IMG/VR virus record: IMGVR_UViG_3300045978_000284
Span: 1-64,000 of that record
DNA from: a virus
Direction: 5' to 3' (one strand)
Length of the DNA: 64,000 bases
Part shown: positions 25,398 through 48,509 of the stretch, in pieces
Layout: the number at the start of each line of letters is the position of its first letter
Numbering within the stretch: position 1 is the stretch's first letter
Made by a program: the position numbers and the translations under genes
The notes under the pieces: generated by a model
What the model was told of the DNA's origin: nothing
The model's database searches: none
What the model saw: the letters and a program-made list of their open reading frames with translations, nothing else

Positions 25398-26005
25398 AGC
25401 GCTCGCCCCTGAAACGATCGGCCCTCCCGATGAAACGATCGGCCCATCCCCTGAAACGCCGGGTGCCCATGGCCGAGGCGTCGAAGCAGCGGATAGCAGC
25501 CGGCGGGCCCCTGGCGCTGGGCCGGCCGTCGCTCTCGAAGAGCGGCTACGCCACGCTCAAGCGCATGATCCGGGCGCGCGCGGGAGGCTTGTGCGAATTC
25601 TGCGGGTCGCCCGGAGTGGACCTCGACCACGTCGTGTTCCGATCCCAGGGCGGGGCGGACAGCTGGGAGAACTGCTATCTGTCGTGCCGGCATCACAACC
25701 TGCGCCGGCACTTCGGCTTCCACGAGGGCCGTCTCGTCGTGCGCGCCATGGGCGACGGCACGTTCCAGGGCATGGTCGCCTGGAACAAGCTGCGGGACGG
25801 GTTGACGTGGGTCCATCCCGACGCCGAGGTGCGCGACCGCGGCATCTTCCAGTACTGGCAGGGCGGCGCCAAGGTCTTCGGGCGTCCGCCAACGCCCACT
25901 GAGCGCGCGAAGCTGGACCGACTGGACAAGCGCGAAGCGTTGGCGGTCGACAAGAAGGCTGCGGCGCCCGGGCGCCGATCCCTATACGGAGGAGACGATG
26001 GCTGA
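25394..26005 (+). CDS. HNH endonuclease
   Basis: CEFCG..DLDHVVFRSQGGADSWENCYLSCRHHN. Confidence 0.9.
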   Translation: MKRSPLKRSALPMKRSAHPLKRRVPMAEASKQRIAAGGPLALGRPSLSKSGYATLKRMIRARAGGLCEFCGSPGVDLDHVVFRSQGGADSWENCYLSCRHHNLRRHFGFHEGRLVVRAMGDGTFQGMVAWNKLRDGLTWVHPDAEVRDRGIFQYWQGGAKVFGRPPTPTERAKLDRLDKREALAVDKKAAAPGRRSLYGGDDG

Positions 26006-27221: not shown

Positions 27222-30200
27222 ATGATCGGGGACTGGATCAAGCGCATCACGGGCCGGCACGAGCCGACCGGACGGCCGGTGATCCAGATCGTTCCGAGCG
27301 GTCAGCCGCCCACTCCGCTCCCGGGCGCCGCGACGGGCTACATCCCTCGGACCGCGGTCCCGTCGGAAGGTGGTCCACTCGCGGTCGAGAAGGAGCAGGT
27401 TCGTCTCTTCGCCGAGCGTCGCGAAGAGCTGAAGCGGTTCGGGCGCTACGAGCTCGGGGTGACGGGCACGCCGGTCTATGGCGGTCAGATCCTGACCGAG
27501 CCGAACCCGGACATGGCGTTCCCGAAGAGCCTGGCCACGTTCGACAAGATGCGTCGGACCGATGGCCAGGTGCACGCGGCGCTCCTGATCATCATGCTGC
27601 CGATCCTCTCGCTCGACTGGGCCATCGAGCCCTACGCGGAAATCGACGAATCGACCAGCACGCCAAAGGAGGTCACGCCCCTCGATCGCCAGGCGGCGGA
27701 CTTCATCCGGAAGGATCTCCTGGAAGGCTTCCAGCCCTTCAAGCACGTGCTCCGCGAGGTGCTCGGGATGATCTGGGCCGGCTTCTGGATCCTCGAAAAG
27801 ATCTACGAGGTCCGGGAGGACGGCCTGGTGCATCTGCACAAGCTCGGCACGCGCCTGCCCCAGACGATCTTCCGGTGGGGCGTGCGGCGCAACGGCGAGC
27901 TGGAGTTCGCCGTCCAGCGCGGCGTCGATCCCTCGACGGGCGGGACGATCGAGCAGACGCTCCCGGCCGAGGACATTCTGATCTTCGTCAACAACCAGGA
28001 AGGGGCGGACTGGCAGGGCCAGTCGGTGCTGCGCTCGGCCTACAAGCACTTCGAGATGAAGGACTGGCTCTACCGGATCGGCGTGATCAACGTCGAGCGC
28101 GGCGGAGGGTTCCCGGTGCTCTCGCTCCCGGAGGGGATGAACGACCAGGACCTCCAGGCCGCCCGGGACGTGGGCGAATCGATCCACGTGCACGAGCGGG
28201 CCTACGTGCTGGAGCCCCACGGGTGGCGCTTCCGGCTGGAGGGGACGACCTCGCGCATCGGCGACGTCATGGCCCAGGTCGAGCACCACGACCGGATGAT
28301 CTCGGTGAACGTGCTCGCGCAGTTCCTGGCGGCGACCGGCGGCGAGCTGGCGGGCCGCGGGTCGACGGCCGAGTACATGGACATGTTCCTGATGGCCGAG
28401 GAGGTGGTCATCGCGAACATCGAAGAGGTGTTCAACTCCGGCCTCGTCCGCCAGCTGGTGGACTACAACTTCCGGGTCGAGCCCGGGCACTACCCGAAGC
28501 TCAAGGCGCAGAACGTCCGCGGGTTCAACGTGCGGCGCATGGGCATCGTGCTGCGCACCATGGTCGATGGCCGCCTGATCACCCCGGACGAGCCCCTCGA
28601 AGAGTTCCTGCGCGAGGCGATGGGCTTGCCGCGAGCCGATCTCGATACCCGGCGCGACCCGATGGCCCAGATGATGGCCGCCGGTGGCCAGGGAGGGGAC
28701 CTCGGGGGCCTCGGGGCTCTCCTGGGGCTGGGTGGCGGTCCAAAGAAGCCAGGCGGTCCGGGTGGGCCCCCGACGCCGGGTGCCCCCACGCAGTCGAAGC
28801 TGGGCAAGCCAGGGCCGGAGACGGGTGTGCCGACCCAGGCCGCCAAGGCTGATCCCGTGTCGCCGATCCCGGGCGAGAATCCACTGCTGCCCTCCGACAA
28901 CCCGAAATGGCAGCAGAAGGAGGCGCTGCTCGCGGAGCGTGCGGAGGACGACGAGTGCATCTGGCGCACGATCGGCGGCAACCCGGTCTGCATCAAGGCT
29001 GGGCATGGCGGACACCGTGAGGGCCAGCGACCCTATCGCCACTCCTCCGGGCAAACTCCCGTGTCGAGCTTCGCGAGCGACCAGCCAAAGGGCCGCGCAG
29101 GACAGGACGAACGGGAGAACCTGCGCTGGCTGACCAGGCCCAGCGACTATGACATCGGTCGCACGTCGGACCGCTTTACCGTCGAGCACGGTCCGTTGCG
29201 CGTGGATGGCGTCATTGGTGACCGGGGCGGCACGCGGACGGCGGACATCAGGGTGTCAAACATGGAAAAGGTCGCGCCGTTCCCGTCCGGCGCCGAGCTG
29301 CCAGATCAATCCATGCCGCCAGTGGCGGCGAGCACCGTCGATCCTGGGAGCATGAGGGCGCTCCTGCGCGAGGTGCAGGCCGAGCTGGTCAAGCGCGGCG
29401 TCTCCCAGGCGATCTTGCCGCAGCCGGATAAGTCCTGGCGCGTCCCGCGCAAGATCCTTGATCGCCTCGGGGCCACGAAGGTCGACATCCCATTCCGCAC
29501 CCCTTCGCCCAAGGAGAAAGCCATGCGCCGGGACCTGGGAATCCCGGCCCCGACAGACGCCGACCGGGGCTCGCTCGTCAAGACCGAGTCCATGAAGGCC
29601 CTCGCTGAGATCTCCGATGAGGACTTCGCGCTGGGCGAGCTGGGCGAGTTCGTCAGCTCGACGGAGCTGCGCATCCCGGAGTGGGAGACCGAGCTGGCGC
29701 GCTACGCGGCCGCAATCCCCGCCGCGGATCTCGCCCAGGACGGTGTGGTCGGAAAGCACCACGTCACCCTGAAGTACGGGCTGGCCACGTCGAACGCGGA
29801 GGACCTGCGTCGGCTCGCGGCATCCCTGCCGACCATGACGCTGCGCCTGGGGGCCACGATGGTCTTCCCCAAGCCCGAGGCGGACATCCTGGTGATGCGG
29901 GTGTTCGGCGAGGGCCTGGAGGAGGCGCATGAGCAGATCCAGCGGTACACGCCCTGCCAGGAGGACGAGCAGCCGTACCTGCCGCACGTGACCCTGGCGT
30001 ATCTCAAGCCAGGCGCCGGCGTTCGCTACGCAGGAGATCCGGCGCTCGCGGGTCGGGCGGCGATCGCCACGGAGCTGTGGTTCCGCCCCTCGACGACCTC
30101 GAAGCTCCCGGACCAGGCGCTCCCGCTGGGCGTCGAGGACATGCAGCTCGCCGGGATCGAGGAGGCCTGGGCCAAGCCGCTGATGATCTCGCGCCCGCTC

Positions 30201-30995
30201 CGCCCACTCGAGCGCGCGGTCAATCTCCACGAGATCGACCGGCGCTGCAAGCTGACGGCGACCCGCATGCTCCAGACGGTGCGCCCGATCGGCCGCCAGA
30301 TGGCCGAGGCGATGGTGAAGGCCTGCCGGGAGTGCGGCGAGGACAACATCCAGTCCCTCATGGACTACCGGGTGCCGCTGCAGGGCAAGATGGCCTCGGC
30401 GTGCAAGACCTACCTCGCGGACATGTTCGACTTCGGGCAGGCCCAGGTGCGCGAAGAGCTGGCCCGGCAGCACCGCCAAGCGCAGAACCCGGAGAGCGAT
30501 CTCCTGCTGGCGGAGCCGCCGCGGCCCATCGACAACGAGAAGCGCGCCCGGGACGTCATCAACCTGAAGGCCGACCTGCTCTCGCGGCGCTGGGCGGAGC
30601 GCCTCAAGGAATCCGCCATGAACGTGATGCTGGCGGCCGCGCGCAGCGGGATGCCCCCGGGCGAGGCCGCGCAGCGCATCCAGGAGGCCGCGGACGAGAT
30701 CACCGATCGCTCGTCGCGCCAGCTCGTGATGAACACGCTCGGGGACGCCTTCGGCCTCGGGCGCCAGGTGGAGGCCCACCGGCAGCGCGACTACATCGGC
30801 GAGGCCGAGTACTCCGCGATCCTCGACGAGAACACCTGTGACCCGTGCCGTCAGCTCGACGGACGCACGGGGCAGCTGGACGAGCCGGCGATGCAGGTGC
30901 CGAACCCGAACTGCGCCGGCGAGCGCTACGGCTCGAGCTGTAGGTGCGTTCTCGTTTTTAGATATCGTGGACCATCCGGGGGCAGTGGGTCATGA
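27222..30995 (+). CDS. Portal protein (DUF935/Mu gp29-like) fused to a GNAT-like domain, a 2H phosphoesterase (Acb1/2'-5' ligase fold) and a MuF minor head domain
   Basis: Portal: FDKMRRTDGQVHAAL, GFWILEKIY, GQSVLRSAY, QLVDYNF; 2H motifs HHVTLKYG (29757) and PHVTLAYL (29985); MuF: YSAILDENTCDPCRQLDG..PNPNC..CRC. Confidence 0.88.
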   Translation: MIGDWIKRITGRHEPTGRPVIQIVPSGQPPTPLPGAATGYIPRTAVPSEGGPLAVEKEQVRLFAERREELKRFGRYELGVTGTPVYGGQILTEPNPDMAFPKSLATFDKMRRTDGQVHAALLIIMLPILSLDWAIEPYAEIDESTSTPKEVTPLDRQAADFIRKDLLEGFQPFKHVLREVLGMIWAGFWILEKIYEVREDGLVHLHKLGTRLPQTIFRWGVRRNGELEFAVQRGVDPSTGGTIEQTLPAEDILIFVNNQEGADWQGQSVLRSAYKHFEMKDWLYRIGVINVERGGGFPVLSLPEGMNDQDLQAARDVGESIHVHERAYVLEPHGWRFRLEGTTSRIGDVMAQVEHHDRMISVNVLAQFLAATGGELAGRGSTAEYMDMFLMAEEVVIANIEEVFNSGLVRQLVDYNFRVEPGHYPKLKAQNVRGFNVRRMGIVLRTMVDGRLITPDEPLEEFLREAMGLPRADLDTRRDPMAQMMAAGGQGGDLGGLGALLGLGGGPKKPGGPGGPPTPGAPTQSKLGKPGPETGVPTQAAKADPVSPIPGENPLLPSDNPKWQQKEALLAERAEDDECIWRTIGGNPVCIKAGHGGHREGQRPYRHSSGQTPVSSFASDQPKGRAGQDERENLRWLTRPSDYDIGRTSDRFTVEHGPLRVDGVIGDRGGTRTADIRVSNMEKVAPFPSGAELPDQSMPPVAASTVDPGSMRALLREVQAELVKRGVSQAILPQPDKSWRVPRKILDRLGATKVDIPFRTPSPKEKAMRRDLGIPAPTDADRGSLVKTESMKALAEISDEDFALGELGEFVSSTELRIPEWETELARYAAAIPAADLAQDGVVGKHHVTLKYGLATSNAEDLRRLAASLPTMTLRLGATMVFPKPEADILVMRVFGEGLEEAHEQIQRYTPCQEDEQPYLPHVTLAYLKPGAGVRYAGDPALAGRAAIATELWFRPSTTSKLPDQALPLGVEDMQLAGIEEAWAKPLMISRPLRPLERAVNLHEIDRRCKLTATRMLQTVRPIGRQMAEAMVKACRECGEDNIQSLMDYRVPLQGKMASACKTYLADMFDFGQAQVREELARQHRQAQNPESDLLLAEPPRPIDNEKRARDVINLKADLLSRRWAERLKESAMNVMLAAARSGMPPGEAAQRIQEAADEITDRSSRQLVMNTLGDAFGLGRQVEAHRQRDYIGEAEYSAILDENTCDPCRQLDGRTGQLDEPAMQVPNPNCAGERYGSSCRCVLVFRYRGPSGGSGS

Positions 30996-31762
30996 ACCAG
31001 CTGGCCATCCCCGCGCATAACGACCCACGCTCTTGGGCGGCGCACGATCCGGGCGATCGCTGCGGCAGCCTCCTCCGTCAGGCCAGTGGAGCCGATCCAG
31101 ACGTAGCAGCATCGCCAGCCCATGGCATTGAGCGCCGCGACCCGCCGCTGGATCTTCGGTATTCGACGCGGGTTCGAGTTGGCAGCGTGCACCTCGATGT
31201 CCAGGGCACCGATTGCCAGGTCAAGGTTGTAGGGCCCCACCGCGCGCTGCGGCTGAACGCGCAAGCCGAGGTGCCCGAGCATGATCTCCAGCTCGGTCTC
31301 CCAGCGGCCCCGCTTCCGCAGACTCCGCGCTGCGGTTCGGGCGCCGTTCGCCCGCGCCGTCTCGGTGTGTGCCCCTGCGGTCAAGGCGGCTCTAGCCGCG
31401 GTGTCCATCCGGCTCAGCCGGAGACGCAGGCTCGCCGAGCGGCCTCGGCGCGCCACGCCCGCGATGCGGAGCAGCCGAGCGACCACAAGCCGGCCGACGC
31501 CAAAGGCTTCTGCCAAGGCTTTCTCCGACTCGCCAGCCCGGTACCGAGCCAGAACCGCGTCGCGGATGTCGGCGTGGCGATCGGCATGTGCCATGAGGAG
31601 GGCCTCACGACGCGGGCGCGCCGTCACCCCGGCCAGACCAAGGTATCGCTGGATCGACGCAACGCTCACCCTCAGTTGGGTGGCCACCTGGGTATAGCTC
31701 AGGCCGCCCTGATAGAGCTCAGCCGCGAGTGCTTCAAGGTCTGGGCGGCGGGGCCGTGGCAT
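30926..31762 (-). CDS. Free-standing HTH-HTH + Vsr/DUF559-like endonuclease (homing endonuclease-like)
   Basis: Two HTH repeats (YQGGLSYTQVATQLRVS; YRAGESEKALAEAFGVG), then WETELEIML..QRAVGPYNLDLAI..DIEVH..GWRCCYVW; only convincing minus-strand gene. Confidence 0.8.
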   Translation of the reverse strand: MPRPRRPDLEALAAELYQGGLSYTQVATQLRVSVASIQRYLGLAGVTARPRREALLMAHADRHADIRDAVLARYRAGESEKALAEAFGVGRLVVARLLRIAGVARRGRSASLRLRLSRMDTAARAALTAGAHTETARANGARTAARSLRKRGRWETELEIMLGHLGLRVQPQRAVGPYNLDLAIGALDIEVHAANSNPRRIPKIQRRVAALNAMGWRCCYVWIGSTGLTEEAAAAIARIVRRPRAWVVMRGDGQLVHDPLPPDGPRYLKTRTHLQLEP

Positions 31763-31796
31763 GCGTAGAGATATATCACAACAGGAGGTCAAGCCC

Positions 31797-32639
31797 ATGG
31801 TGACGGAAATGCTGGTGCAGGCGCAGCCCCAGATCGTGATGCCCCGGACGATCTACCAGGCCGATTGCTGGGAGCACTTCCACCCGCTCCGCCTGGGCGA
31901 GTACCGCTGCTCGACGCCAGGCGGCGACTGTCCGCTCGTGAAGGCCCGGGCGGCGGTGCGGTGGCACCTGAAGTGGTCGGAGGTCTACCACAACATCGTG
32001 GTGACGGCGGGCCTGAACCACGTCATGTCTCGGCTCATGCGGTCCTCGGCCGTGGGCGGGGCCACCCTGGGCTACAACGACGGCCGCCGGCTGCCGACCG
32101 CCTGGATCGCCTCGACCGCGTACTCGGTGGGCGACGTCGTGCGGCCGACTGGGGCCTCGGCCCAGGATCCGAACAACCGCTTCTTCGTCTGCCAGGTGGC
32201 GGGCACCTCGGCGGGCTCGCAGCCGACCTGGCCGAACACCGCGGGCGGCACGGTCACCGACAACACCGTCACGTGGGCAGAGGGAAGCCAGTGGTACATC
32301 GGTCTCGTGAACGGGCCGACGGAAACCGACTACAACCCGGCCGACACGATGGCCTCGCACGCCGGGTGGACGGAGAACGTGACCTACTCGAACACGACCC
32401 GGGTGGCCTACATTCCGGGTGCGGTGTCGGCGGGCTCGTGCAACAACTCCGGGAACCTGGCGGCGTTCAACATCAACGGCAGCGCCACGATTTCGGGCTC
32501 GTTCCTGACCGACATCCAGACCAAGGGCGGCACCGCCGGACTGCTCTACGGTGTCGGGGCCTACACGGGCGGCGATAGGTCGCTGACGGGGGGCGATACC
32601 CTCAACGTCACAGTGACTACGAGCGCCACGTCGGCATAG
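31797..32639 (+). CDS. Virion structural/decoration-type protein with an inserted carbohydrate-binding-like module
   Basis: AGGAGG RBS; HNIVVTAGLN..GDTLNVT scaffold with a WIASTAYSVGDVVRP..GTS..QPTW..DNTVTW insertion. Confidence 0.6.
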   Translation: MVTEMLVQAQPQIVMPRTIYQADCWEHFHPLRLGEYRCSTPGGDCPLVKARAAVRWHLKWSEVYHNIVVTAGLNHVMSRLMRSSAVGGATLGYNDGRRLPTAWIASTAYSVGDVVRPTGASAQDPNNRFFVCQVAGTSAGSQPTWPNTAGGTVTDNTVTWAEGSQWYIGLVNGPTETDYNPADTMASHAGWTENVTYSNTTRVAYIPGAVSAGSCNNSGNLAAFNINGSATISGSFLTDIQTKGGTAGLLYGVGAYTGGDRSLTGGDTLNVTVTTSATSA

Positions 32640-32648
32640 GAGGCAGGG

Positions 32649-33026
32649 ATGCGACAGGAGACCGTCGAGAAGGATGGCAAGACGTCGACCGTGTGCGTGG
32701 TGGAGGCCGGCGAGGAGGACCGCGTGTGGCTCTTCGTCGATGCGGAGGGCCAAGAGGTCAGCCGGCTGAACGTTCCCGCGGGCCAGGCGGCGACGGTGAA
32801 GATGCCGCAGGGCTCGAAGCGCGAGAAGAACGCGGAGGGCTGGGAGCGCACGGTGCCGGTGCCGACCGTGGCGATCCTGGCCCCCGTGGAGACGGGTGCG
32901 GCCGCGGAGAAGCTCCTGGCCCAGACCGATCTGCCCCCGGGCTACGAGCTGATCCGGCTCTCGCACGGGGTGGTTCTGCTGCCGCCAAACGGGCAGGGGT
33001 GGAAGCTGCCGCCCAAGGGGGCCTGA
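32649..33026 (+). CDS. Hypothetical protein
   Basis: GGAGG RBS; open frame. Confidence 0.55.
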   Translation: MRQETVEKDGKTSTVCVVEAGEEDRVWLFVDAEGQEVSRLNVPAGQAATVKMPQGSKREKNAEGWERTVPVPTVAILAPVETGAAAEKLLAQTDLPPGYELIRLSHGVVLLPPNGQGWKLPPKGA

Positions 33027-33027
33027 G

Positions 33028-33210
33028 ATGGACATCTCGATCGCCGTCATCTGCGCCCTGATCCTGGTGGCGGCGTTCCTGCTCACGCACTTCATCCCGA
33101 TGCCTTCCTGGGTGGCAGGGATCCTCTGGGGGCTGGCGGTGCTGGCCATCATCGTCATCGTCACGCGCGCCCTCGGGATCCGAACGGGTCTTGCCATGCT
33201 CACCCTGTGA
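33028..33210 (+). CDS. Small two-TM membrane protein
   Basis: ISIAVICALILVAAFLL and WVAGILWGLAVLAIIVIV. Confidence 0.6.
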   Translation: MDISIAVICALILVAAFLLTHFIPMPSWVAGILWGLAVLAIIVIVTRALGIRTGLAMLTL

Positions 33211-33222
33211 GGCCCTAGATCC

Positions 33223-34107
33223 GTGTGGACGATCCCGAACGACGACGGGAGCGCGCAGGCCCAGTACCAGTCCCAGCTCGACAGCGTGGACCTGGAGATC
33301 CTGGTCCGCGCGCTGGGCGGGTCCGCGCGCGCCGGCGTGGTGACGGGGTGCGCGGTCAATGCCCAGGGCTCCCCGAACATGACCGTGCAGGTGACCGCGG
33401 GCCTCGTCCAGTTCGGGAATATCCTGAAGCCGATCACGGCCAAGACCGTCACCATCACCACCGCGCACGCGACCCTGCCCCGCTTCGATCTGATCGAGGT
33501 CAACGCGTCGGACGCCGGCTTCGCCCGGGAGGGGACGCCGGCAGTCTCGCCACGGTTCCCGTTCCCGGACACCGACCGGGTGGTGCTGGCCTCGGTGTTC
33601 GTGCCGGCCGCGATCTCGTCGATCGCCCAGGACAAGATCGTCGACAAGCGCGCCGGGGTGCCGGGGGTGGTCGTCAACCCGCGCCTCGCCGATCTCGCCA
33701 AGACGTCGGACAACACGATTGCGACCGATTCCGCGTTCTCGGCGCCCATGGCCGCGCAAGGGAAGTACCTGCTGATCCTCAAGATCTGGTACAACACGGC
33801 AGCGAATCCGGACTTCAAGTGGCGTCTGATTGGCCCGGCCTCGCCGGCGGCGATCAATCTCAACGGCCAGTACGTGATCCCCAACGCCACCCAGCTGGTC
33901 GCCCCGTTTCGCATGACGGCCTACTCCACGTCGGACGAGACCATCCTGTCCGGCGCGACGGGCGAAGGCTGGCTGCTCGTCGAGGGGTACATCGAGAACG
34001 GTCTCAACGCGGGATTCCTCGAGTTCCAGTGGGCGCAGAACACCTCGAACGCCACGGCCACCACGGTGCGCGGGGCGAGCTATCTGCAGCTGATTCCGGT
34101 GGGCTGA
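33223..34107 (+). CDS. Putative virion fibre/receptor-binding-type protein (paralog of the next gene)
   Basis: GVVTGCAV..MTVQVTAG..PRFDLI..VLASVFVPA..IVDKR N-terminal module; KIWYNT..DFKW..FQWA..RGASY. Confidence 0.6.
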   Translation: MWTIPNDDGSAQAQYQSQLDSVDLEILVRALGGSARAGVVTGCAVNAQGSPNMTVQVTAGLVQFGNILKPITAKTVTITTAHATLPRFDLIEVNASDAGFAREGTPAVSPRFPFPDTDRVVLASVFVPAAISSIAQDKIVDKRAGVPGVVVNPRLADLAKTSDNTIATDSAFSAPMAAQGKYLLILKIWYNTAANPDFKWRLIGPASPAAINLNGQYVIPNATQLVAPFRMTAYSTSDETILSGATGEGWLLVEGYIENGLNAGFLEFQWAQNTSNATATTVRGASYLQLIPVG

Positions 34108-34108
34108 G

Positions 34109-35020
34109 ATGTCGCTGACCATCCCGAACGACGAGACGACCTGGCTCAGCGAAGCCTTCTCCCTGCCCCAGGCAGTCGATTTCGCGATCCTGGCCGCGGC
34201 GTGCGGCCCCCGGCCCACGGGCGTGCTGTGGGGCTGCCGCGCCTACTGGGATGGGTCATCGACGATCCACGTGGACCCGGGCACCGTCCTGCTGGACGGG
34301 GCCTTTGCCATGACGCCGACCACCCCCGTGGATTGCACCAGCGACGTGCTCAGCCGGATTGATCTCATCCAGGTCATTCCCGTCGCGGAAAGCGTCGCGT
34401 CGGTCCAGATCAAGAGCGGGGCCTACTCCGAGACGCCGCGCGCGCCCCTGCCGGACCCGGGGTGCGCCGGTGTGGCGGTGGTCTATGTGCCGGGCAAGGT
34501 GAATGACTACTTCCCGCCGCTCGGGCCCGAGTTCGTGCTCGACAAGCGCGTCTTTCTGCCCGGCACGGTCCGGCGATCCAAAAAGGTCGACGAGAGCCGG
34601 TCGACTCTGACGGCGACCGACGATGACTACCTGGCCCTGCCGATCCCGAAGGGTCACGTGACCCATGTCACGATCAAGGTCTGGTACAACACCAACGCGA
34701 CCGCGGACTTCATCTGGTCCCTCGTGCTGCGGGACGGGAACGGGGTGTCATTCGCGCCGCCCACCGTGCTGGTGAACTACCAGTACACCCGGCCGACCGT
34801 GGTGACCCTCGTGGCGCCGGTGTTTTCATCGTCGCTCCCGTCGGGCATAAGCGTGAATGCGTCGGGGACGGGCGACGCCTGGCTTCTGATCGACGCGGCG
34901 ATCGGCGGGGACGCCACGCGCGACGGCGTCCTGAAGTTTCAGTGGGCCACGACCGGGGCCGGCGCGGCGATTCTGCGCGGGTCGAGCTACGCGATTGCGC
35001 GGGGCCAGGGCTGGGCCTGA
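34109..35020 (+). CDS. Putative virion fibre/receptor-binding-type protein (paralog of the previous gene)
   Basis: Shares TIPND, GV..GC, RIDLI, DKR, KVWYNT..DFIW, FQWA, RGSSY. Confidence 0.6.
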   Translation: MSLTIPNDETTWLSEAFSLPQAVDFAILAAACGPRPTGVLWGCRAYWDGSSTIHVDPGTVLLDGAFAMTPTTPVDCTSDVLSRIDLIQVIPVAESVASVQIKSGAYSETPRAPLPDPGCAGVAVVYVPGKVNDYFPPLGPEFVLDKRVFLPGTVRRSKKVDESRSTLTATDDDYLALPIPKGHVTHVTIKVWYNTNATADFIWSLVLRDGNGVSFAPPTVLVNYQYTRPTVVTLVAPVFSSSLPSGISVNASGTGDAWLLIDAAIGGDATRDGVLKFQWATTGAGAAILRGSSYAIARGQGWA

Positions 35021-37682
35021 TGTGGCTGCCCATCCAGCCGTTCACGCTGCGCGGCATCAACTCCACGGTGGGGCACCCGGACGGCGGGTACCGGGTCCGA
35101 TCGTGGGGCTGCCCGTACCCCACGCTGCTCTGGTGTTCCACCGCCTCCCCGCTCGGCACGACGCACCAGGCCCGGCTGCCGGACATGACCCCGGGGATCA
35201 CCTGGCTCCTGGCGGTGCTGACCCAGCCGCGCGTGTCGATCACGTGGCCCGCGGCGCCGAACGGCCCCTGGACCTCGCTGCTGACCGGCGACGCGCATGG
35301 CGTGGCCTCGCGACTGGCGATGGCGATGCGGACGGCGAGCGGGGCCGAGTCCAAGTTCGTGACCTACACGACGTCGGCCTCGGCGCGCTGCATGGCAATC
35401 GCGATCGCCATGACCGGCCTCTACCCGGGCTCGACGCCCGAGTTCCAGGTCGGCTGGGACGAGTTCGTGGCGGCTCCCCCGTACCCGAGCCTCACGCCGT
35501 CGTGGGGGGTGGAGGGGGAGCGGACGACCTGGCTCGCGTTCACCGGGACCGTGGACGCCGACAACGACCTGCCCTTCCATCACGCGCTGGAGGATGCGCT
35601 CCGCATCCGCGCCATCCTGATCGACCCCACGGATCGTCACGAGCAGCTGGATCTGTGCCGGCTCGATCAACCACTCGCCACCTGGACTCCGTCGGCGCTC
35701 CTGTCATCCTCCTCCGGCCTGCTGCTTGAGTGCACGGCGGTCACGATGGCGCTCAGGGCCAATACGACGGCCTGCGAGTTCACCGCGGCCTCGAGCATCG
35801 ACGGGCGGATCCGGTTGACCCTGTTCCTGCACCAGCTGACCGGCAAGGTCCTCACCATGCGGCTCATCAACGGGCACACGGTGAGCCGGAAAGCCACGGT
35901 GAGTGGGCCCGGGGGGAGCTACGAGGTGACGGCCGCACCCGGGGCCACGGAGACGCTCGACATCTCGGCGGGACTGCTCTCGCTGGACAACATCAGCTAT
36001 GGGACGAGCCAGGCCTGAATGGCCTTCGGCGATGTCCTCATCCTCGCGGAGAACACCAACACCTCGCAGCTCACCGCCTATCCCACGTCCAGCTATACGC
36101 CGACCGCGGGCCGGCTCATCGTGGCCGGGACGCTGATCACGGCCAGCAGCGCGCCGGGTACGCCCACGCTCACTGGGAACGGGCTCACGTGGTCGCTCAT
36201 CGACGAGATCGGCTACAGCACGCTGGCGGCGCCCACCAAGCTCCTGAGCGTCTTCCAGGCCCCGGTGATCTCACCGTCGTCCGGGGCGTGCGAGATCGCC
36301 AGCAGCAGCGGGACGCTCACGTCCTGCACGTGGTCGATCGTCGAGCTCGACCTGGCCGCGCTCGTGGGCGGGATTGTCCAGGCCCAGAAGGCCGGTAGCG
36401 ACGTGACCCAGACCTCCGCGCTGGTCCCCATGAACCCGTTCGCGGATGCCGGCAACCTGGCGCTGGCGTTCTCGGTCCTGAACAACCAGCAGGCCCAGAC
36501 CGAGCGCCCGAACTGGAACCGCATCAGCGATCTGCCGGGCACCGCGCCGGCGACGGGGTTTCTCTCGCAGTACTTCCTGGGTGACGATGGGGACGCCAGC
36601 GCCTCATGGGGCTCGGTCACGCGGTGGGCTATGATCGCCCTCGAAATCAAGGCCCAGGTGGCGCCGGCCCAGGTGTGGCGTCGACAGGTCCCGATGATGC
36701 TGATGCGGTAGGAAAGGACGAGGGCTATGGGACGCATGTATCGACTGCCGATGCCGGCGATCGCGATCACCGCCCAGCAGGATTTCTATGAGATCCAGTC
36801 GCCGACCGATGCCGTGACCAAGGTGCACCGGATCATCCTGAGCCAGCTGACGGAGGTCGGCGACGCCCAGGAAGAGCAGCTGTCGATCCGCGTGAACCGC
36901 GGGACGGGCACCGTCACGAGCGGCAGCGGCGGAACGACCCTGACCCCGCAGCCCATCGAGGCGGGCGACGTCGGCTACGGGGGCGTCGTGGAGATCAACA
37001 ACACGACGAAGATGGCCGTCGGAACGGGCACGCTCGTCAACCTCGGCGAGTACTCCTGGAACGTGCGCATGGAGCGGGACTTCGTGTATACCCCGGAAGG
37101 GCGCGAGGTCATCTCGCCCGGCAGTCGGCTGACGTTCGAGCTGGCCACGACGCCGGCGGATCCCATCACGGTCAAGGGCACGGTCGAGATCGAGGAGGTG
37201 GGCGGATGAGCTGGAAGGGGACGGTCCTGACGCCCGAGACGGTGCCCCCGGCCATCCGGGCGGACCTGATGCGCAAGGCCAACCGCCGCCACCCGCGCGA
37301 TCCCGCGGCCGCGATGGCCGCCCACGAGGTGCTCGTGGCCGAGTATGCCCAGGCGCACAACGAGCGCTTCCGTGTCGTGGCGTATGACGGCGAGGTGCCG
37401 GTGATCGCCGAGGAACTGGAGGCGCGAACGCTCAAGCGCCTCTCGCCGAAGGCGCGGCGGATCGCCACGGCCCTGCTCCTGAGCACGCCCGACGTGCGGG
37501 CGGAAGCGCTCGGGGCCTTCGAGGCCTCGGGCGCGCTGCGCTCGGTCCTGGAGCCCGTGCCGGCCGCTGCGGCTGAGAGCGCCCCGCCACAGGCACCACC
37601 GCCGCCGCCCCCATCCCGCCAGCCGGCGCCAGCCTCCAGCCGTCCATCGCATACGCCGCCTGGACGCTCGACCCGGCGGTAG
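35020..37682 (+). CDS. Four beta-rich/hypothetical putative virion proteins (35020-36018, 36019-36711, 36727-37209, 37206-37682)
   Basis: Tightly coupled ORFs; Thr/Ser/Gly-rich composition. Confidence 0.55.
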
Positions 37683-37691
37683 CCCCGTCGC

Positions 37692-39080
37692 GTGTCGACC
37701 GGGGTCTTCCGGCGCTATCCGCGGCGGTACCCGCGGGCCTGGATTGCCGGCGCGCCGGCGGGCGGCGTGGTCTCGGCGTCGATCGACTACGGCCTGACCG
37801 CGGCGGTGCCGGCAGCGACCACGGCGATCGCAGGGAAGTCGATCGCGTACGGGGTGGTCGTCAACGCCCCGGCTTCGGCCAGTGCCGTGCGCGCCGCGGC
37901 CCTGCCGCTCGGGGTGATCGAGGCGCTCGGCCTGGGCCGCGTCCTGTCGGCCGGCGCATCGCTCTCGCTGACGACCGTGGAGGGGCTCGTGCTCGCGGCG
38001 AGCCGCACCGCGGCCGCCGCGCTGGCGCTGGGCGTCACGGAAGCGCTGACGCCGACCGCGGGCCTCCTGGCGGTGGCGTCGCTGACCCTCGGCACCCAGA
38101 CGGCCCTGATCCTGAACGGGCTTCCGCCGGGGGCGAGTCTGGACCTCGGGATCACGACCGGGCTGGCCCAGAGCGCGGGCCTCCTGGCGGTGGCCTCGAT
38201 GCCGTTCGGGGTCACGGGCGCGATGGCCCCGGCCCCGCAGACCACACGCGAGGGGACCCTCGCCCTGTCGGTCGAGATCGGGTTGGTCCAGGTTGGCGCC
38301 GCGGTCCTCCAGGCGGCGCTCGGGCTCGGGCTGACGTCGCTCCAGAGCCAGCAGGCCGGCACGGTCGCCTCGGCCCTGATCACCTACCCCGTGCTGGAGC
38401 AGCTTGGCCTGGTGGCGGGCGGGAGCCTCATGGCAGCCCAGACGCTGGCCGCGGTGATGGGGTTCACCCCGGCCGCCGCGCCGAGCGGTGTGAGCGTCCT
38501 CGAGCTGGGTACGCAGCTCGCCCTGACCCTGCCGGCGCCGAACGCGATCATGGCGGCGATCCTGTCCATGGGGGTGCAGCATGGGATGGCGCTGGCGGGC
38601 GGCGCGATGCTGCAGGCGCTGCAGGCCCTGGGGATCACGACGGCGTTCCTGCCCGAGCCGGCGGGCGGGACCCAGCAGGCGCCGCTGACGCTGTCGCTCA
38701 CGACGGACCTGGCGCTCGCGGCCTCCCGCGTGTCGGCGGCGCTCCTCAGCCTGACGTCGATCCCGGCGCTGTCTCCGGATGCTCAGCACCAGCTCGGGCG
38801 CGCGCTGGCCCTGACGATCCAGCAGGAGCTGGCCCTGCACACGCAGACGGCGCAGTCGGCGCTGATCCAGTACGGGCTGACGGCCAGCCAGGTGCAGCTC
38901 GGCGGGATGGTCCACCAGGCGGTGATGAGCCTGGCGGCGTCGCTCGTGCTGGCCCAGAACGGGGCGCTGTTCTCGGCGATCGGCCACCGCATCCGCTTCA
39001 CGGGCGAGCAGATGCGGGCGGCCACCATGACGGGCGAGTCGATGGGCGGCGCGTCGCCGAAAGGGGAACGATTGGTATGA
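37692..39080 (+). CDS. Ala/Leu-rich degenerate-repeat protein (fibre-like)
   Basis: Recurrent ~23-aa A-S-L-x-L-G-x-T pattern through the protein. Confidence 0.6.
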   Translation: MSTGVFRRYPRRYPRAWIAGAPAGGVVSASIDYGLTAAVPAATTAIAGKSIAYGVVVNAPASASAVRAAALPLGVIEALGLGRVLSAGASLSLTTVEGLVLAASRTAAAALALGVTEALTPTAGLLAVASLTLGTQTALILNGLPPGASLDLGITTGLAQSAGLLAVASMPFGVTGAMAPAPQTTREGTLALSVEIGLVQVGAAVLQAALGLGLTSLQSQQAGTVASALITYPVLEQLGLVAGGSLMAAQTLAAVMGFTPAAAPSGVSVLELGTQLALTLPAPNAIMAAILSMGVQHGMALAGGAMLQALQALGITTAFLPEPAGGTQQAPLTLSLTTDLALAASRVSAALLSLTSIPALSPDAQHQLGRALALTIQQELALHTQTAQSALIQYGLTASQVQLGGMVHQAVMSLAASLVLAQNGALFSAIGHRIRFTGEQMRAATMTGESMGGASPKGERLV

Positions 39081-39454
39081 GGCCCAACTCCTACTGGCAC
39101 AGTACCGAGCGGACGACGGGGGCGTACACGGTGAAGGCCCTGAAGGACGAGGACGGGATCGTCCTGACGAGCCTCGATACCCTGACCCTCTCGGTGTGGG
39201 ATCTCAAATCGGGCGCGATCATCAACGGGCGCGACCGGCAGGACGTGCTCAACCAGAACGACGTGACGTTCAATGGGGACGGCTCTCTGCTCTGGCGCGT
39301 CCAGGCCGCCGACCGGCCGATCCTGGACGACACGCAGGACTGGGAGGACCACGTCGCCATGTTCGAGTTCACCTATGCGGGCGGGGGGCGAACCGGCCAC
39401 TGGGTGCTCCAGGACCGGATCGACAATCTCCAGAAGGTGCCGGCGACGCCGTGA
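39077..39454 (+). CDS. Hypothetical structural protein (BppU-N-like)
   Basis: ERTTG.Y...LKDEDG..LTL..D..SG.IINGRD.Q pattern; coupled to its neighbours. Confidence 0.5.
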   Translation: MRPNSYWHSTERTTGAYTVKALKDEDGIVLTSLDTLTLSVWDLKSGAIINGRDRQDVLNQNDVTFNGDGSLLWRVQAADRPILDDTQDWEDHVAMFEFTYAGGGRTGHWVLQDRIDNLQKVPATP

Positions 39455-42400
39455 GCGCGAAGTGGGACGTGGTTCTGGCCGAGCGCCTGCTGGCGGACAA
39501 AGAGCGCTCGGGCATCGAGGCGTTCATGCGCGGCACCGGGCGAAAGCGCGGCGGCGGCGAACAGGGTGGCGGCGGTGGTGACGAGGACGACGGAGACTGC
39601 AAGTGGGTCACCATCCGCGGTAACCCCGTCTGCCTGACGCCGGGTCATGGTGGCCACCGGAAGGGCGAGTCCATCGCGAAGTCCCAGGCGGCCTACTCCG
39701 ATGTACCCACGGGGAAGGGGGGCCGCGTGCGCGCGGTGTCCCGGATCTGGAACCCGACCGCCGAGAACACCTGGCGGGGCTCCGGTGCCGTGACACCGAA
39801 GTGGCCCAAGGGCGTCGAGCCCGGAAGAGTGCTCGACCGCTTCCGCTTCAACACGACGTCGATGTCCGCTTCCGGCCACATCGAGGAGGACGAGAACCAA
39901 CGCAAGCGGGCCGTCATCCACGAGGTGGTCAACGACACGCCGAGCCTCCTGACGTCGCAGGAGCGGCGAAACCAGCCGACCGGATCCTACCCGTCGCGCG
40001 CCGGCGAATCCCGCACCCTGCTCCGCGAGCTGATGGTCAGCCTGCGCGACAAGGGGGTGCGGGAGGCCATCCTGCCCCCCAGGGTGGTCGGGGCGGGCGC
40101 CGAGCCGTGGATGGCGTACCAGTCCACGCGCGGGGACAAGCCGTACCCGCGGAGCTGGCCCGGAATGAGCGTGCAGTTCGGCCGCGCCGAGCCCAGGCCA
40201 GGAGTCGTGGCGGGTCCAGGCCTCGGCGATGCGACGGCGCGCCCGGTTCCGCCCCATCGCATCCTCGATCGCCTCAAGGCCAAGCCGGTCACGGACGCGG
40301 GCGGCAAGATCACGGGCTACCGGGTGAACGTCGAGGAGATGCAGTACCTCTGCGAGATGGCATGGCCCGAGGATCGCGTCCTGGCGGATCCGGAGCGGCG
40401 GCGCGTGGTGGCCGCCTTCGACTTCGACGGCACGCTGGCCCAGTACCAGGGGTGGGGCGACGGGACACCGGGCGATCCGATCCCGGGCATGCGCGAGGTC
40501 ATCGACCAGCTGCAGGCCGCCGGCGCCGAGGTCCTGATCTTCTCGACGCGGGATGCCGACCAGATCCGGGCCTGGCTCACGAAGCACGAGTGGCCGGCCC
40601 TGGAGGTGACGAACAAGAAGCACCCGCGGATCACGGTGTACATCGACGACCGGGCCCTCGAGTACGAGCCCGAGACGCTCGACACCCTGGCCGTCCGGGT
40701 CATGAACTTCCGCCCGTGGTGGCAGACGGTCGACCACCAGCTGGCGGACGAGGACGACGACTGCACCTGGATCACGATCGACGGCCGCCACATCTGCATC
40801 CAGCCCAAGCACGCCTGGCATGACCGGACGCCGCGCGTGAAAGTCAGCCGCGCGCCGCACTGGCGACGTGAGCCGATCGAGGGCAAGCGCATCAGCTGGT
40901 CCCAGCAGGGGAAGATGGGGGAGCGCCTGGCGATCGCGCATCTCAAGCGCCTTGGGTTCCGGGACGCGCGGCCGGCCACGAAGATCTCGAACTTTCCCGT
41001 CGACCTGGTGCACGGGGACACCCTGGTCGAGGTCAAGACGGGGCTCGCCAGCAACACGCAGAAGAGCCAGCACTGGCGGACCACGATCGGCGAGCCCGGC
41101 AAGGCGGAGCGGCGCTGGCTGCGCGAGCTGGACCGGGACAAGAAGCTCCGGTGGAACGCCGAGAAGATGCGCCAGATCCATCTCCGCAAGCAGGCGGTCG
41201 TGAAGGCGCTCTCGCGCGAGCTGGGCCGTCCGATCAAGACGGAGACCGTCGCGCTCATCCTCGACCCGGGCCGGCGCAAGGCCGACGTGTACCGCTTCGA
41301 GGGCTTCCCCAGGCGCGTGGGATGGCGCTCGCCCACGGCCCAGCAGGGCTACGTGACCACCTACGACTACAAGCTGAGCGAGGACCTGTGGGACGTACCG
41401 GCCCCGCCGCTGCGGCCGGACGTCTACGAACTCGCCGAGCCCGAGGCGGAGCCCGCTGATCCGGAGACGGTCGATGACGAGGCCGACGACGACGCGGACT
41501 GGCCGTCCTGGGTGCCGCTGGGCGTGCGCGCCGAGGTCGAGGGTGCGCTGTCGCGCTGGAGCCGCGACGTCGAGAAGGCGATCGCGAAGGAGGACAGCCG
41601 GTCGCTCGCCGAGGAGGACGACGACGAGTGCATCTGGCGCATGATCGGGGGCCACCCGGTCTGCATCCGCGCGAGCCACGCGGAGCACGGCCGCGGCGAG
41701 CGACCGGACCGTGGGGCCCCCCGGGAGACCCGGCGGTTCCGCTCCGAGACCACCCCACGCGCCCCGAAGCCCCCGGCGAAGGGCATCAACCCGGAGCCCT
41801 TGACCACCCGGGTGGCGAGCCCTCGGCTCTTCAGCCCGGTTGCCCGGGCGGTGCCGCTGGGCCATCGCTACGGGGAAAAGCCGTCCGGCGACCCGGAGGG
41901 CCACCTGAACTCGGTGTTCCGCGTGACGCTGGAGAACGGCAACGACGCGGTGTGGAAACCGGCCGCCGGCGAGCACAGCGCGTTCTCCGGCGCCGATCCC
42001 GCCAAGCTGAAAGGATTCACGCAGGACCTCCGGGCGTTCGGCCAGCCAGGCACCTACTGGAAGCGCGAGGTGGCGGCCTCCCGGATCGCCCGGGCGGTGG
42101 GCATGGAGGACCTGGTGCCGTCCACCGACCCGGCCTCGTTCGGCACCGAGCACGGGGCGCTTCAGACGTTCCAGCGCGGGGTGAGCCCCATGACCCTCGG
42201 GCGCGATCTCTACGGCAAGCGGCTCGAGGACGTCGAGCGCGCGGTGCTGTACGACGCGGTCATCGGGAACTTCGACCGCCACTTCGGCAACTGGCTGGTG
42301 GCCCCCACCGGCAAGCTGATCCTGATCGACCATGGCCACGCCTTCCCGCGCACCCAGGTCGTGAAGCACCCGGGGGACCTCCGGGAAGGTCTCCGGGCAG

Positions 42401-42594
42401 GCGGCGAAATGAACCGCGAGATCCCGGAGGCCGTGAAGGAGCCCTGGAAGAAGATCGAGAGCCAGCTCCCGACGCTCCTGCGGGGTCTTTCGTCGGCCAC
42501 CATCAAGACGACGCGGCAGCGGCTCGGCCTCGCCCTCAAGCCAGGCCAGACGTGGATCGGCCTGCGGCGCGACCTGGAGCGGCCGTTCAAGTAG
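39451..42594 (+). CDS. Multi-domain polyprotein: GNAT-like domain + HAD phosphatase + PD-(D/E)XK nuclease + PI3/PI4-kinase/HipA-like kinase, with three C-W-I-G-C tags
   Basis: GTG start overlapping the upstream TGA; DFDGTL..FSTR..YIDDRA; GERLA..PVDL..VEVKTG; AVWKP..REVAA..DRHFGNWL..IDHGHAFP. Confidence 0.85.
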   Translation: MSAKWDVVLAERLLADKERSGIEAFMRGTGRKRGGGEQGGGGGDEDDGDCKWVTIRGNPVCLTPGHGGHRKGESIAKSQAAYSDVPTGKGGRVRAVSRIWNPTAENTWRGSGAVTPKWPKGVEPGRVLDRFRFNTTSMSASGHIEEDENQRKRAVIHEVVNDTPSLLTSQERRNQPTGSYPSRAGESRTLLRELMVSLRDKGVREAILPPRVVGAGAEPWMAYQSTRGDKPYPRSWPGMSVQFGRAEPRPGVVAGPGLGDATARPVPPHRILDRLKAKPVTDAGGKITGYRVNVEEMQYLCEMAWPEDRVLADPERRRVVAAFDFDGTLAQYQGWGDGTPGDPIPGMREVIDQLQAAGAEVLIFSTRDADQIRAWLTKHEWPALEVTNKKHPRITVYIDDRALEYEPETLDTLAVRVMNFRPWWQTVDHQLADEDDDCTWITIDGRHICIQPKHAWHDRTPRVKVSRAPHWRREPIEGKRISWSQQGKMGERLAIAHLKRLGFRDARPATKISNFPVDLVHGDTLVEVKTGLASNTQKSQHWRTTIGEPGKAERRWLRELDRDKKLRWNAEKMRQIHLRKQAVVKALSRELGRPIKTETVALILDPGRRKADVYRFEGFPRRVGWRSPTAQQGYVTTYDYKLSEDLWDVPAPPLRPDVYELAEPEAEPADPETVDDEADDDADWPSWVPLGVRAEVEGALSRWSRDVEKAIAKEDSRSLAEEDDDECIWRMIGGHPVCIRASHAEHGRGERPDRGAPRETRRFRSETTPRAPKPPAKGINPEPLTTRVASPRLFSPVARAVPLGHRYGEKPSGDPEGHLNSVFRVTLENGNDAVWKPAAGEHSAFSGADPAKLKGFTQDLRAFGQPGTYWKREVAASRIARAVGMEDLVPSTDPASFGTEHGALQTFQRGVSPMTLGRDLYGKRLEDVERAVLYDAVIGNFDRHFGNWLVAPTGKLILIDHGHAFPRTQVVKHPGDLREGLRAGGEMNREIPEAVKEPWKKIESQLPTLLRGLSSATIKTTRQRLGLALKPGQTWIGLRRDLERPFK

Positions 42595-47735: not shown

Positions 47736-48509
47736 ATGGGCAAGTTGCTCGTTCAGCTGCGCAAGGATCTCGCCCTCGCCGAGGACGCGACGGTCGTCGA
47801 GGTCATGGACCACATGGGCCGCATGCTCGCGGACGACATGACCGAGGAGGAGAAGAAGAAGGCCGAGGAAGAGGCCGCCGCCGCCAATGCGGCGAAGAGC
47901 GCCGAGGAGGAGGCCAAGAAGGAAGAGGACAAGGAGATGTCGGAGGTGCGCGCGCTGCTCAAGATCGCCAAGCCGAAGCCGGGCGCGATCCTGACGGCGG
48001 TGCGGACTCTCACGACGTCGGCCTCCGACCACGTGCTCTCGGAGACCGCGCTGGGCCGCGAGCTTGCCGAGCTGCGCCTGTCCCACAAGGAGCTGTCAGA
48101 TCAGGTCGAGGAGCTGCGCCCCGCGGCCGCGGAAGCGACGCGCCTGGCGGCCGAGGCGAAGGCCACCAAGAAGGCCACCTTCTTCGATCGCCAGCTCCAC
48201 GAGGGCAAGCTGAAGCCGGCGGAGCGGTCGTTCTATGAGGCCCAGTACGACCTCAACGAGGACGCGGTGGTCAAGTTCTTCGGCGAGCGCAAGCCGGAGA
48301 TCAAGCTCGGCCAGTGGCCGTCGGTCAATCGCCCGGTCGAGGAGCCCGCGGCCGGGGATCCGCGCGAGCGGGTGCTGGCCGAGGCGCAGAAGCTCGCCCT
48401 CGCCGAGAAGATTCCGCTCGACCAGGCCGTGCACCGCGTGACGGCCCAGGACCACGAGCTGGCCGAATCGGTGCGGGGCATGTACGGCCCGGCGGGCGTC
48501 CGCCGGTAA
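47736..48509 (+). CDS. Capsid scaffolding protein (Mu gpZ-like)
   Basis: Coiled-coil EK-rich sequence, EGKLKPAE motif typical of the gpI C-terminal scaffold; upstream of decoration and capsid genes. Confidence 0.75.
   Translation: MGKLLVQLRKDLALAEDATVVEVMDHMGRMLADDMTEEEKKKAEEEAAAANAAKSAEEEAKKEEDKEMSEVRALLKIAKPKPGAILTAVRTLTTSASDHVLSETALGRELAELRLSHKELSDQVEELRPAAAEATRLAAEAKATKKATFFDRQLHEGKLKPAERSFYEAQYDLNEDAVVKFFGERKPEIKLGQWPSVNRPVEEPAAGDPRERVLAEAQKLALAEKIPLDQAVHRVTAQDHELAESVRGMYGPAGVRR

Follow-up and report, generated by a model that had tools for sequence, protein, structure and literature searches.

The virus record IMGVR_UViG_3300045978_000284 of IMG/VR comprises 108,431 bp with approximately 69% G+C and is judged 96% complete; its first 64 kb (positions 1 to 64,000, hereafter the window) are analyzed here. 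Almost all long open reading frames (ORFs) of the window are found on the + strand. They include a head-assembly block in which a portal fusion gene is followed by about 12 ORFs without a recognized family, a polyprotein gene, an ORF for a Mu gpI-type protease, a putative scaffold gene, and the capsid gene. The products of the portal fusion gene and the polyprotein gene contain four copies of a peptide of about 30 residues, referred to below as the hairpin tag. A blastn search against cultured phages shows no DNA-level relative of this virus.

The two tagged proteins

The two tagged genes and the segments that they encode are as follows.

27222..30995, + strand: portal (Mu type)-tag-domain X-2H phosphoesterase-MuF fusion gene, 1257 aa (Pfam Portal_Mu 8e-33, 2_5_RNA_ligase2 5.8e-7, and Phage_Mu_F 2e-8; PHROGs)
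28929..29015, + strand: tag copy 1 in the portal fusion, behind a Gly/Pro-rich linker, with L-A-E, an acidic run, the C-x10-C hairpin, and H-x2-H (DNA pattern, profile, AlphaFold2)
29016..29600, + strand: domain X, behind tag 1, homologous to the module behind tag 2; no Pfam match
29760..30017, + strand: 2H phosphoesterase (LigT/Acb1-like) module containing two H-x-T motifs, with L-A-E ahead at 29601 and no hairpin (Pfam)
30648..30953, + strand: MuF (SPP1 gp7-like) domain at the C terminus of the portal fusion, with L-A-E at 30507 ahead (Pfam)
39451..42594, + strand: gene for the polyvalent cargo polyprotein, 1047 aa, with the GTG start of the public gene call (Pfam, PHROGs, tblastn, protein P0003)
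39580..39657, + strand: tag copy 2, the first of the polyprotein, behind a Gly-rich linker (DNA pattern, profile)
39658..40380, + strand: domain X', behind tag 2, homologous to domain X
40363..40746, + strand: HAD-family phosphatase module with L-A-D ahead and no hairpin (phrog_1238 5e-12, phrog_415; tblastn to a Gordonia phage polynucleotide kinase [PNK] 9e-16)
40741..40821, + strand: tag copy 3, with L-A-D, an acidic run, and the hairpin, heading the PD-(D/E)xK-like module (DNA pattern, profile)
40890..41565, + strand: PD-(D/E)xK-like nuclease module (D...E-V-K motif; weak Foldseek matches)
41605..41688, + strand: tag copy 4, with L-A-E, an acidic run, and the hairpin, heading the PI3/PI4-kinase-like module (DNA pattern, profile)
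41689..42594, + strand: PI3/PI4-kinase-like (atypical kinase) module (Pfam PF00454, 9e-9, core match at 42229-42357)

The four peptides had been reported in a first-pass annotation of the window, and both the DNA pattern and the profile search find them there, in frame. The degenerate DNA pattern for C-x-W-x2-I-x-G-x2-[VI]-C-x4-H-x2-H has exactly four matches in the window, all on the + strand, with the first Cys codons at 28956, 39598, 40762, and 41629; none of 100 dinucleotide-preserving shuffles has any match. A profile search of the whole 108,431-bp record returns the same four copies and no others. The two Cys and two His residues are invariant in all four, forming the arrangement C-x10-C-x4-H-x2-H, a CCHH ligand set. 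The earlier description of two cysteines at this spacing, with a His four residues after the second one, is correct as far as it goes; it overlooked the second invariant His. At the DNA level, the copies show a mean column identity of only 69% (copies 1 and 4 are close in the core), indicating that the tag is conserved at the protein level. Recent gene conversion among the copies was rejected in view of this modest identity.

In the portal fusion, the Mu-type portal domain is followed by a Gly/Pro linker, the tag, domain X, the 2H phosphoesterase, and MuF. The polyprotein consists of a tag, domain X', the HAD phosphatase, a tag, the PD-(D/E)xK-like module, a tag, and the PI3/PI4-kinase-like module. 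As claimed in the annotation, the tags head cargo domains, but copies 2 to 4 share one ORF (39196/39451-42594) and are therefore internal polyprotein junctions, each downstream of a probable protease site, rather than heads of separate genes. With copy 1 lying in the portal fusion, all four copies are internal.

The kinase that the annotation assigned to the last tag is supported by the Pfam match. Its nuclease is weakly supported: the module contains the D...E-V-K motif, and the structural model yields only weak Foldseek matches, the top entries of which are all PD-(D/E)xK enzymes. The GNAT-like labels given to the modules behind tags 1 and 2 find no support in Pfam, ESM Atlas, and PDB comparisons, none of which identifies domain X. 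X and X' are homologues: BLASTP aligns them at 2e-14, and the alignment takes in the tag. The HAD module resembles the phosphatase part of phage polynucleotide kinases. Apart from the HAD domain, neither protein has relatives in cultured phages by blastn and tblastn, and a related-locus search with the portal fusion found nothing. Pfam searches reveal no peptidase domain in either protein. Taken together, the 2H, HAD/PNK-like, nuclease-like, and kinase-like modules look like a set of tools, delivered with the DNA, for processing nucleotide signals or RNA ends. The 2H module shows a weak match to Acb1 (anti-CBASS), and a strong Acb1 domain (6e-38) is found in another protein of the census described below.

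Predicted fold, distribution, and cargo of the hairpin tag

A profile built from the four window copies was searched against 1.84 billion representative proteins (E<=1e-3). It matched 36 proteins, one of which is a tandem-repeat false match; the 35 real ones are all metagenomic. A further search added four proteins, including one named SPP1 gp7-family head morphogenesis protein by JGI. In the 35 proteins of the first search, the number of copies per protein ranges from 1 to 7 (7 in the 2434-aa P0008, 6 in P0009, and 7 in P0010); this census is biased to Cys-bearing forms because its profile was made from copies with both cysteines (CC).

The tag comprises, in fixed order, an upstream element of the type hydrophobic-x-Glu/Asp (L-A-E/D in the window phage), an acidic spacer of 5 to 7 residues, and a Trp-centered hairpin. 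The consensus of 85 instances is [L/Q]-x-E-A-x-D-D-[D/A/E]-C-x-W-[I/V/R]-T-[I/K]-x-G-x-x-[V/I]-C-I-x-x-G-H-x(1-3)-H. Nearly invariant positions are the turn Gly, the Trp, and the Thr that follows the Trp at a distance of two residues. The acidic run noted previously is a property of the whole family: the 8 residues ahead of the first Cys include, on average, 3.2 acidic and 0.3 basic ones. The Cys pair is perfectly coupled: both cysteines are found in 67 instances, neither in 18, and a single one in none, where approximately 28 mixed instances would be expected if the two positions were independent. In the Cys-less copies, the first Cys is replaced by Gly (or Ile/Tyr) and the second by Phe, Tyr, or Pro. 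They are found beside Cys-bearing copies within P0019, P0024, P0025, and P0041, indicating that the switch occurred within lineages. The H-x1-3-H pair is present in 43 of the 67 Cys-bearing copies and in none of the 18 others; copies without it run on as G-x-I-x-K-G-P.

With 11 copies as input, AlphaFold2 (AF2) predicts C-I-W-R-T-I and N-P-V-C-I-K as strands on the two sides of a G-G turn, with a pLDDT of about 87 there and low confidence elsewhere; the model as a whole is of modest confidence, as is that of the nuclease-like module. The predicted register places both cysteines and the Trp on the same side. The stapled β-hairpin suggested in the annotation is supported by these strands and by the coupling of the cysteines. 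This coupling, together with the invariant Trp and Gly, argues for selection on a fold. Since the Cys pair is coupled and the His pair accompanies only the Cys pair, a Cys2His2 metal site is favored in the lineage of the window phage, and the hairpin is predicted to be tied by such a site, most likely with Zn. In the Cys-less forms, a Trp-aromatic cross-strand pair would take the place of the ligands; for forms with cysteines only, a disulfide is the alternative. Two other identities were rejected: intein-like or Cys-dependent self-cleavage, as Cys-less variants exist and there is no H-N or other set of splicing residues, and an HNH or ββα-metal nuclease, as the tag has neither the helix nor the catalytic pattern.

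Consecutive copies are mostly 125 to 640 residues apart, which is the size of a domain. Twelve copies, in 11 proteins, are found within 40 residues of the N terminus, several of them right behind the start codon, and only one is near a C terminus. The tag is usually followed by a Pro/Gly/Ala/Ser-rich linker and then a domain. Domains found in the tagged proteins include Phage_Mu_F (6), Zeta_toxin (3), ART-PolyVal (2), an ATLF-type zincin peptidase (2), DUF7178 (2), Acb1, RelA_SpoT, and DRAT. Directly behind the tag are MuF and DUF7178 (P0008 and P0010), Zeta toxin (P0015 and P0019), phrog_2859 (P0016 and P0023), and, in P0011, a domain that is ParB-like by a weak PHROG match, along with other phrog families. 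Tabulated in this way, the cargo proves to be varied and linked to head genes, rather than one fixed domain or a set without connection to the virion. The tag is portable, as it heads many unrelated domains in phages with portals of different Pfam families; it is a head-piece of modules that is not bound to one cargo. Conversely, the homologues of the nuclease-like module in P0004 and P0005, from two other phages, are portal-fused and headed by a W-D-E-S-x-H-P-R-G-x5-G-E-F peptide instead of the hairpin. The tagged proteins are members of the published phage-type polyvalent protein class. In P0008, at residues 386-619, an intein splicing domain is located right behind the MuF domain.

The genome context of the tag covers two lineages, the window phage and the phage that encodes P0010. 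In an IMG/VR contig of the latter phage, the gene for P0010 is located directly behind the TerS-TerL-lambda-family portal genes and ahead of the capsid gene; on a 125-kb metagenome contig, this phage has 11 tag copies in three ORFs. The portals of the two phages come from different Pfam families, and their ORFs in the protease/scaffold position share no BLASTP similarity. As both phages carry tags among their head genes, the tag is tied to virion genes in at least two lineages.

The hairpin tag is rare. With strict DNA patterns, the real matches in IMG/VR are limited to the P0010 phage, the rest being chance, out-of-frame matches; one genome per GTDB species yields only matches of the latter kind, and other real ones come from three metagenome sources. 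Cultured phages contain no tag detectable by tblastn of the genes or with a Cys-less tag peptide. Nothing was found in a related-locus search with a 47-aa tag alignment or in a word-index search that used the Cys-less P0039 copy. No Pfam, NCBIfam, or PHROG family covers the tag, and a PDB profile search returns no chain at E<=10. The tag itself is undescribed, being present in no curated library (Pfam, NCBIfam, PHROG, or PDB) and matched in no cultured phage, whereas the class of proteins that carry it is already published.

Probable protease sites and candidate roles of the tag

In three of the four window tags, L-A-E or L-A-D is found 7 to 9 residues before the first Cys; copy 2 has L-A-E 38 residues and L-A-D 43 residues upstream of its Trp, ahead of the Gly-rich linker. 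In T4, gp21 cleaves behind L/I-x-E and breaks the scaffold down. The genes of the window phage for the head protease, the putative scaffold, and the capsid lie downstream of the polyprotein gene.

44043..45806, + strand: Mu gpI-type head protease ORF, the candidate processing enzyme (Pfam Mu-like_Pro 1e-17, domain at residues 29-163)
47736..48509, + strand: putative scaffold, 257 aa, assigned by position only
49011..49952, + strand: major capsid protein (Pfam Phage_cap_E)

Counts of L-[AS]-[DE], compared with the mean of composition-preserving shuffles, are 7 versus 1.4 in the polyprotein, 6 versus 1.4 in the protease ORF, 5 versus 1.3 in the ORF after the protease, 8 versus 1.1 in the putative scaffold, and 0 versus 0.3 in the major capsid protein, figures that may be inflated by helical proteins rich in Leu, Ala, and Glu; tail genes show no significant excess over shuffles. 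The sites are found at domain borders in both tagged proteins, including borders without a hairpin (before the 2H, HAD, and MuF domains and after the nuclease-like one). The P0010 phage has [L/Q/M]-x-E-A ahead of all seven hairpins of P0010, and this pattern exceeds its shuffled counts in P0010 (12 versus 2.9), in the ORF that precedes the capsid gene (6 versus 1.2), and in the portal (4 versus 0.8). Over the family, 37 of 77 instances have such an element 5 to 10 residues upstream of the first Cys, compared with 3.9% at random positions. This pattern is as expected of a head-protease site, and the upstream L-A-D/E is a probable one.

In the P0010 phage, the capsid domain takes up only residues 256-573 of the 580 aa encoded by the capsid ORF (L005 20061-21803). 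This ORF has a match to the C-terminal portion of a PHROG that bears the annotation head maturation protease, and it contains [L/Q/M]-x-E-A at residue 250, just ahead of the start of the Pfam capsid domain at 256. Judging from this match and these positions, the ORF is probably a fusion, with its N-terminal 250 residues removed at the [LQM]-x-E-A site.

We propose that the tag is an autonomous head-piece of head-carried cargo modules, cut upstream by the head protease while the hairpin is kept as a loading or retention handle; the probability of this reading is roughly 0.45. The modules would reach the prohead either as part of the portal (12 copies, which face inward) or in the form of the free polyprotein. 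The Mu gpI-type protease would then cut L-[AS]-[DE] at the junctions and throughout the scaffold, so that each released enzyme would retain an acidic stapled hairpin at its new N terminus. This hairpin could serve as a common handle that loads cargo into the capsid or retains it there until ejection with the DNA. The capsid-targeting or ejection signal put forward in the annotation is likewise hypothetical.

Several observations weigh against this proposal. Cleavage, metal binding, and encapsidation are steps that we infer, and the AF2 model has low confidence outside the hairpin. Instead of a cut site, the upstream L-x-E may be a structural element of the mini-fold (AF2 places a weak helix end there), and helical scaffold proteins naturally contain Leu-Ala-Glu triplets. 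L-A-[DE] without a hairpin is found ahead of the 2H, HAD, and MuF modules, which makes the hairpin dispensable at some junctions, and the portal-fused copy needs no addressing signal. The CC-only, His-less variants may have either a metal site or a disulfide. The census is biased toward the CC copies used for the profile. Finally, no head protease is assigned in the P0010 phage.

The nearly fixed distance of the upstream site would also suit a tag that is only a protease-recognition element, with the hairpin, on the primed side, presenting L-x-E/D to the head protease or to a zincin in cis and having no part in loading or delivery. In P0014 and P0017, an ATLF-like zincin peptidase domain is indeed found upstream of the hairpins, and peptidase processing of polyvalent proteins has been proposed by Iyer et al. 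2017 (PMC5512222). However, probable sites without hairpins are found at other junctions, with eight in the scaffold, and the tag spans phages with differing portal families and no detectable relation between the ORFs in the protease/scaffold position. Moreover, free-standing proteins start with the tag, leaving little or nothing to cut off. We regard a purely proteolytic role as unlikely.

Somewhat less likely still is a function after delivery, in which the tag would be a metal-binding knuckle, unrelated to the capsid, that tethers the enzyme to nucleic acid or a host target or causes it to oligomerize. The CCHH set and the basic turn residues of many copies (K-x-G-R-R in P0010) do resemble nucleic-acid-binding knuckles, and several cargo domains (nuclease-like, 2H, and HAD/PNK-like) act on nucleic acids or nucleotides. 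Yet the hairpin is always preceded by an acidic run and also heads MuF, a structural head domain, and the Zeta toxin domain, whose known relatives act on a cell wall precursor and not on nucleic acid. The Cys-less variants retain the fold signature, and no zinc-finger family in Pfam or PDB matches the tag.

The tag might, finally, be an evolutionary joint, a structurally neutral conserved spacer for recombinational exchange of cassettes, comparable to the motifs that bound the variable ends of polymorphic toxins. Such an origin would account for the same cargo domain having different heads in different phages, for the widely varying set of cargo, and for the duplication of the whole module of tag plus domain X between the portal gene and the polyprotein. 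It is made improbable by the conservation at the protein level (69% DNA column identity) and by the perfect coupling of the cysteines and the invariant Trp and Gly, which point to selection on a fold. Chance resemblance or a trivial recent internal duplication without function, to which the three copies in one gene and the closeness of copies 1 and 4 in their DNA core might be ascribed, is refuted by the conservation of the pattern across lineages (85 instances in 35 proteins of unrelated metagenomic phages) and by the absence of any match in 100 shuffles.

Known systems and other features of the locus

Phages inject enzymes that disarm host defenses, many of them strung in giant polyvalent proteins; to our knowledge, the loading and separation of such proteins are not known outside T4 and its relatives. 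The paper on polyvalent proteins (PMC5512222) describes strung effector enzymes, fused to or encoded beside MuF and portal proteins, that are predicted to be packaged in the head, injected, and processed into units. The proteins of the window phage and their relatives are similar in their domains (2H, kinase-like, and nuclease modules in the former; ART-PolyVal, Zeta toxin, RelA/SpoT, and zincin peptidase in the latter), in having at least two unrelated effector-type domains per polypeptide (HAD, PD-(D/E)xK-like, and kinase-like in the polyprotein; 2H and X in the portal fusion), and in their setting, with copy 1 in a portal-MuF fusion and the polyprotein encoded between the portal gene and the protease and capsid genes. 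Unlike many polyvalent proteins, the window proteins have no zincin in cis, a domain that is common but not universal in the class; their candidate processor is the Mu gpI-type protease. A term search of that paper found no mention of a repeated Cys/Trp hairpin at junctions, and none of the Pfam LPD families derived from the polyvalent-protein work covers the tag.

MuF polymorphic toxins of temperate phages, as presented by Jamet et al. 2017 (PMC5576092), have an N-terminal MuF domain, one C-terminal toxin, and an adjacent immunity gene, and their genes belong to the head-morphogenesis module. The fusion of a MuF head domain to variable enzymatic domains within a head module is shared by the portal fusion of the window phage, which differs in having MuF at its C terminus, several modules, and neighboring ORFs without a recognizable family, none of them identified as an immunity gene. 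A junction or linker motif is not mentioned in the MuF-toxin paper, according to a term search. More generally, the papers on polyvalent proteins, MuF toxins, and JBD30 mention no such motif and define no site for a Mu-type protease.

In T4, the capsid targeting sequence (CTS) has an L/I-x-E cleavage site of the head protease at its end. It is a short conserved N-terminal peptide on diverse injected anti-defense proteins (IPI-III and Alt), and it suffices to load foreign proteins into the head (PMC3012670). By analogy, the hairpin tag would work most like this sequence, and its L-A-E/D recalls the CTS cut site. The tag is common to diverse modules; it is within 40 aa of the N terminus in 11 proteins and internal in all four window copies. 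Unlike the CTS, it is internal and repeated in polyproteins, includes the Cys2His2 set, and has no sequence similarity to the CTS. The CTS consists of approximately 10 unstructured residues located before the cut and is removed, whereas the hairpin is located behind the probable cut and would stay on the cargo. The hairpin also resembles C2H2 fingers, CCHC knuckles, and zinc ribbons in that a β-hairpin and the next segment provide two Cys and two His within about 20 residues. It differs from these classical modules in that C-x10-C-x4-H-x1-3-H places the cysteines at the hairpin ends instead of in a C-x2-4-C knuckle, and in that ligand-free relatives exist.

The tag and the adjacent probable protease site offer a testable candidate for the loading and separation step of polyvalent proteins, and the tag gives a means of locating module borders in uncharacterized phage proteins and might become a tool for placing selected proteins in capsids. 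The switch between the Cys pair and the Gly-aromatic pair is a natural experiment on two ways to stabilize one mini-fold. A further-reaching possibility, which we consider doubtful, is that the hairpin is a general transferable signal for capsid loading and retention, such that, on any protein, it would bring about uptake into the prohead, release by the head protease at the site just upstream, and injection with the DNA. The metal-stapled and aromatic-stapled forms would then be two solutions for one docking fold, and the hairpin would be an engineerable address tag for packaging proteins into the heads of phages other than T4. Together with the HPR/NPYR tags described next, it would point to a hidden code that organizes phage cargo polyproteins.

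A second tag type is found in the protease ORF and in the ORF that follows it.

44571..44609, + strand: NPYR-x3-G-x-F-T tag with L-S-E ahead, behind the protease domain in the protease ORF
45842..45880, + strand: NPYR...GxF tag with L-A-E ahead, in the ORF after the protease
46517..46555, + strand: NPYR...GxF tag with L-Q-E ahead, in the ORF after the protease

These copies have the pattern L-[ASQ]-E-x-x-L-A-(G)-N-P-Y-R-x3-G-x-F-T, with a Gly linker and then a basic segment rich in Gly and Ala behind each, and they resemble the H-P-R...G-E-F tag of P0004 and P0005. Like the hairpin, the HPR/NPYR tags are found at the head of cargo modules in portal- or MuF-linked proteins and have L-x-E upstream; the two kinds of tag are positionally equivalent. 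No publication on the HPR/NPYR tags was found. Unlike the hairpin, they consist of another peptide without Cys, Trp, or the hairpin signature, and the [HN]-P-[RY]...G-x-[FW] signature is missing from the hairpin tags as well as from the 35 hairpin-bearing proteins of other phages. The hairpin tag family is much rarer than the HPR/NPYR tags. The ATG of the ORF after the protease, at 45803, overlaps the stop codon of the protease ORF (ATGA; stop at 45806), and a longer GTG start at 45701 is probably unused.

The region between the portal fusion and the polyprotein (30992-39454) contains approximately twelve + strand ORFs of 60 to 462 aa; none of them has a Pfam family, and the two that were compared with PHROGs have no match there. 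This block is unusually long for unknowns inside a head module and may encode more virion cargo.

Two endonuclease-related genes are found upstream of the head-assembly block. An 883-aa ORF at 19283-21934 contains a LAGLIDADG_2 homing-endonuclease domain at residues 405-561 (1e-13) and may be either an inserted endonuclease or an intein. L-[AS]-[DE] is likewise more frequent in this ORF than in shuffles (5 versus 1.3). Just upstream of the portal gene, at 25394-26005, is a gene for a 203-aa HNH endonuclease, in a spot typical of terminase-associated HNH proteins.

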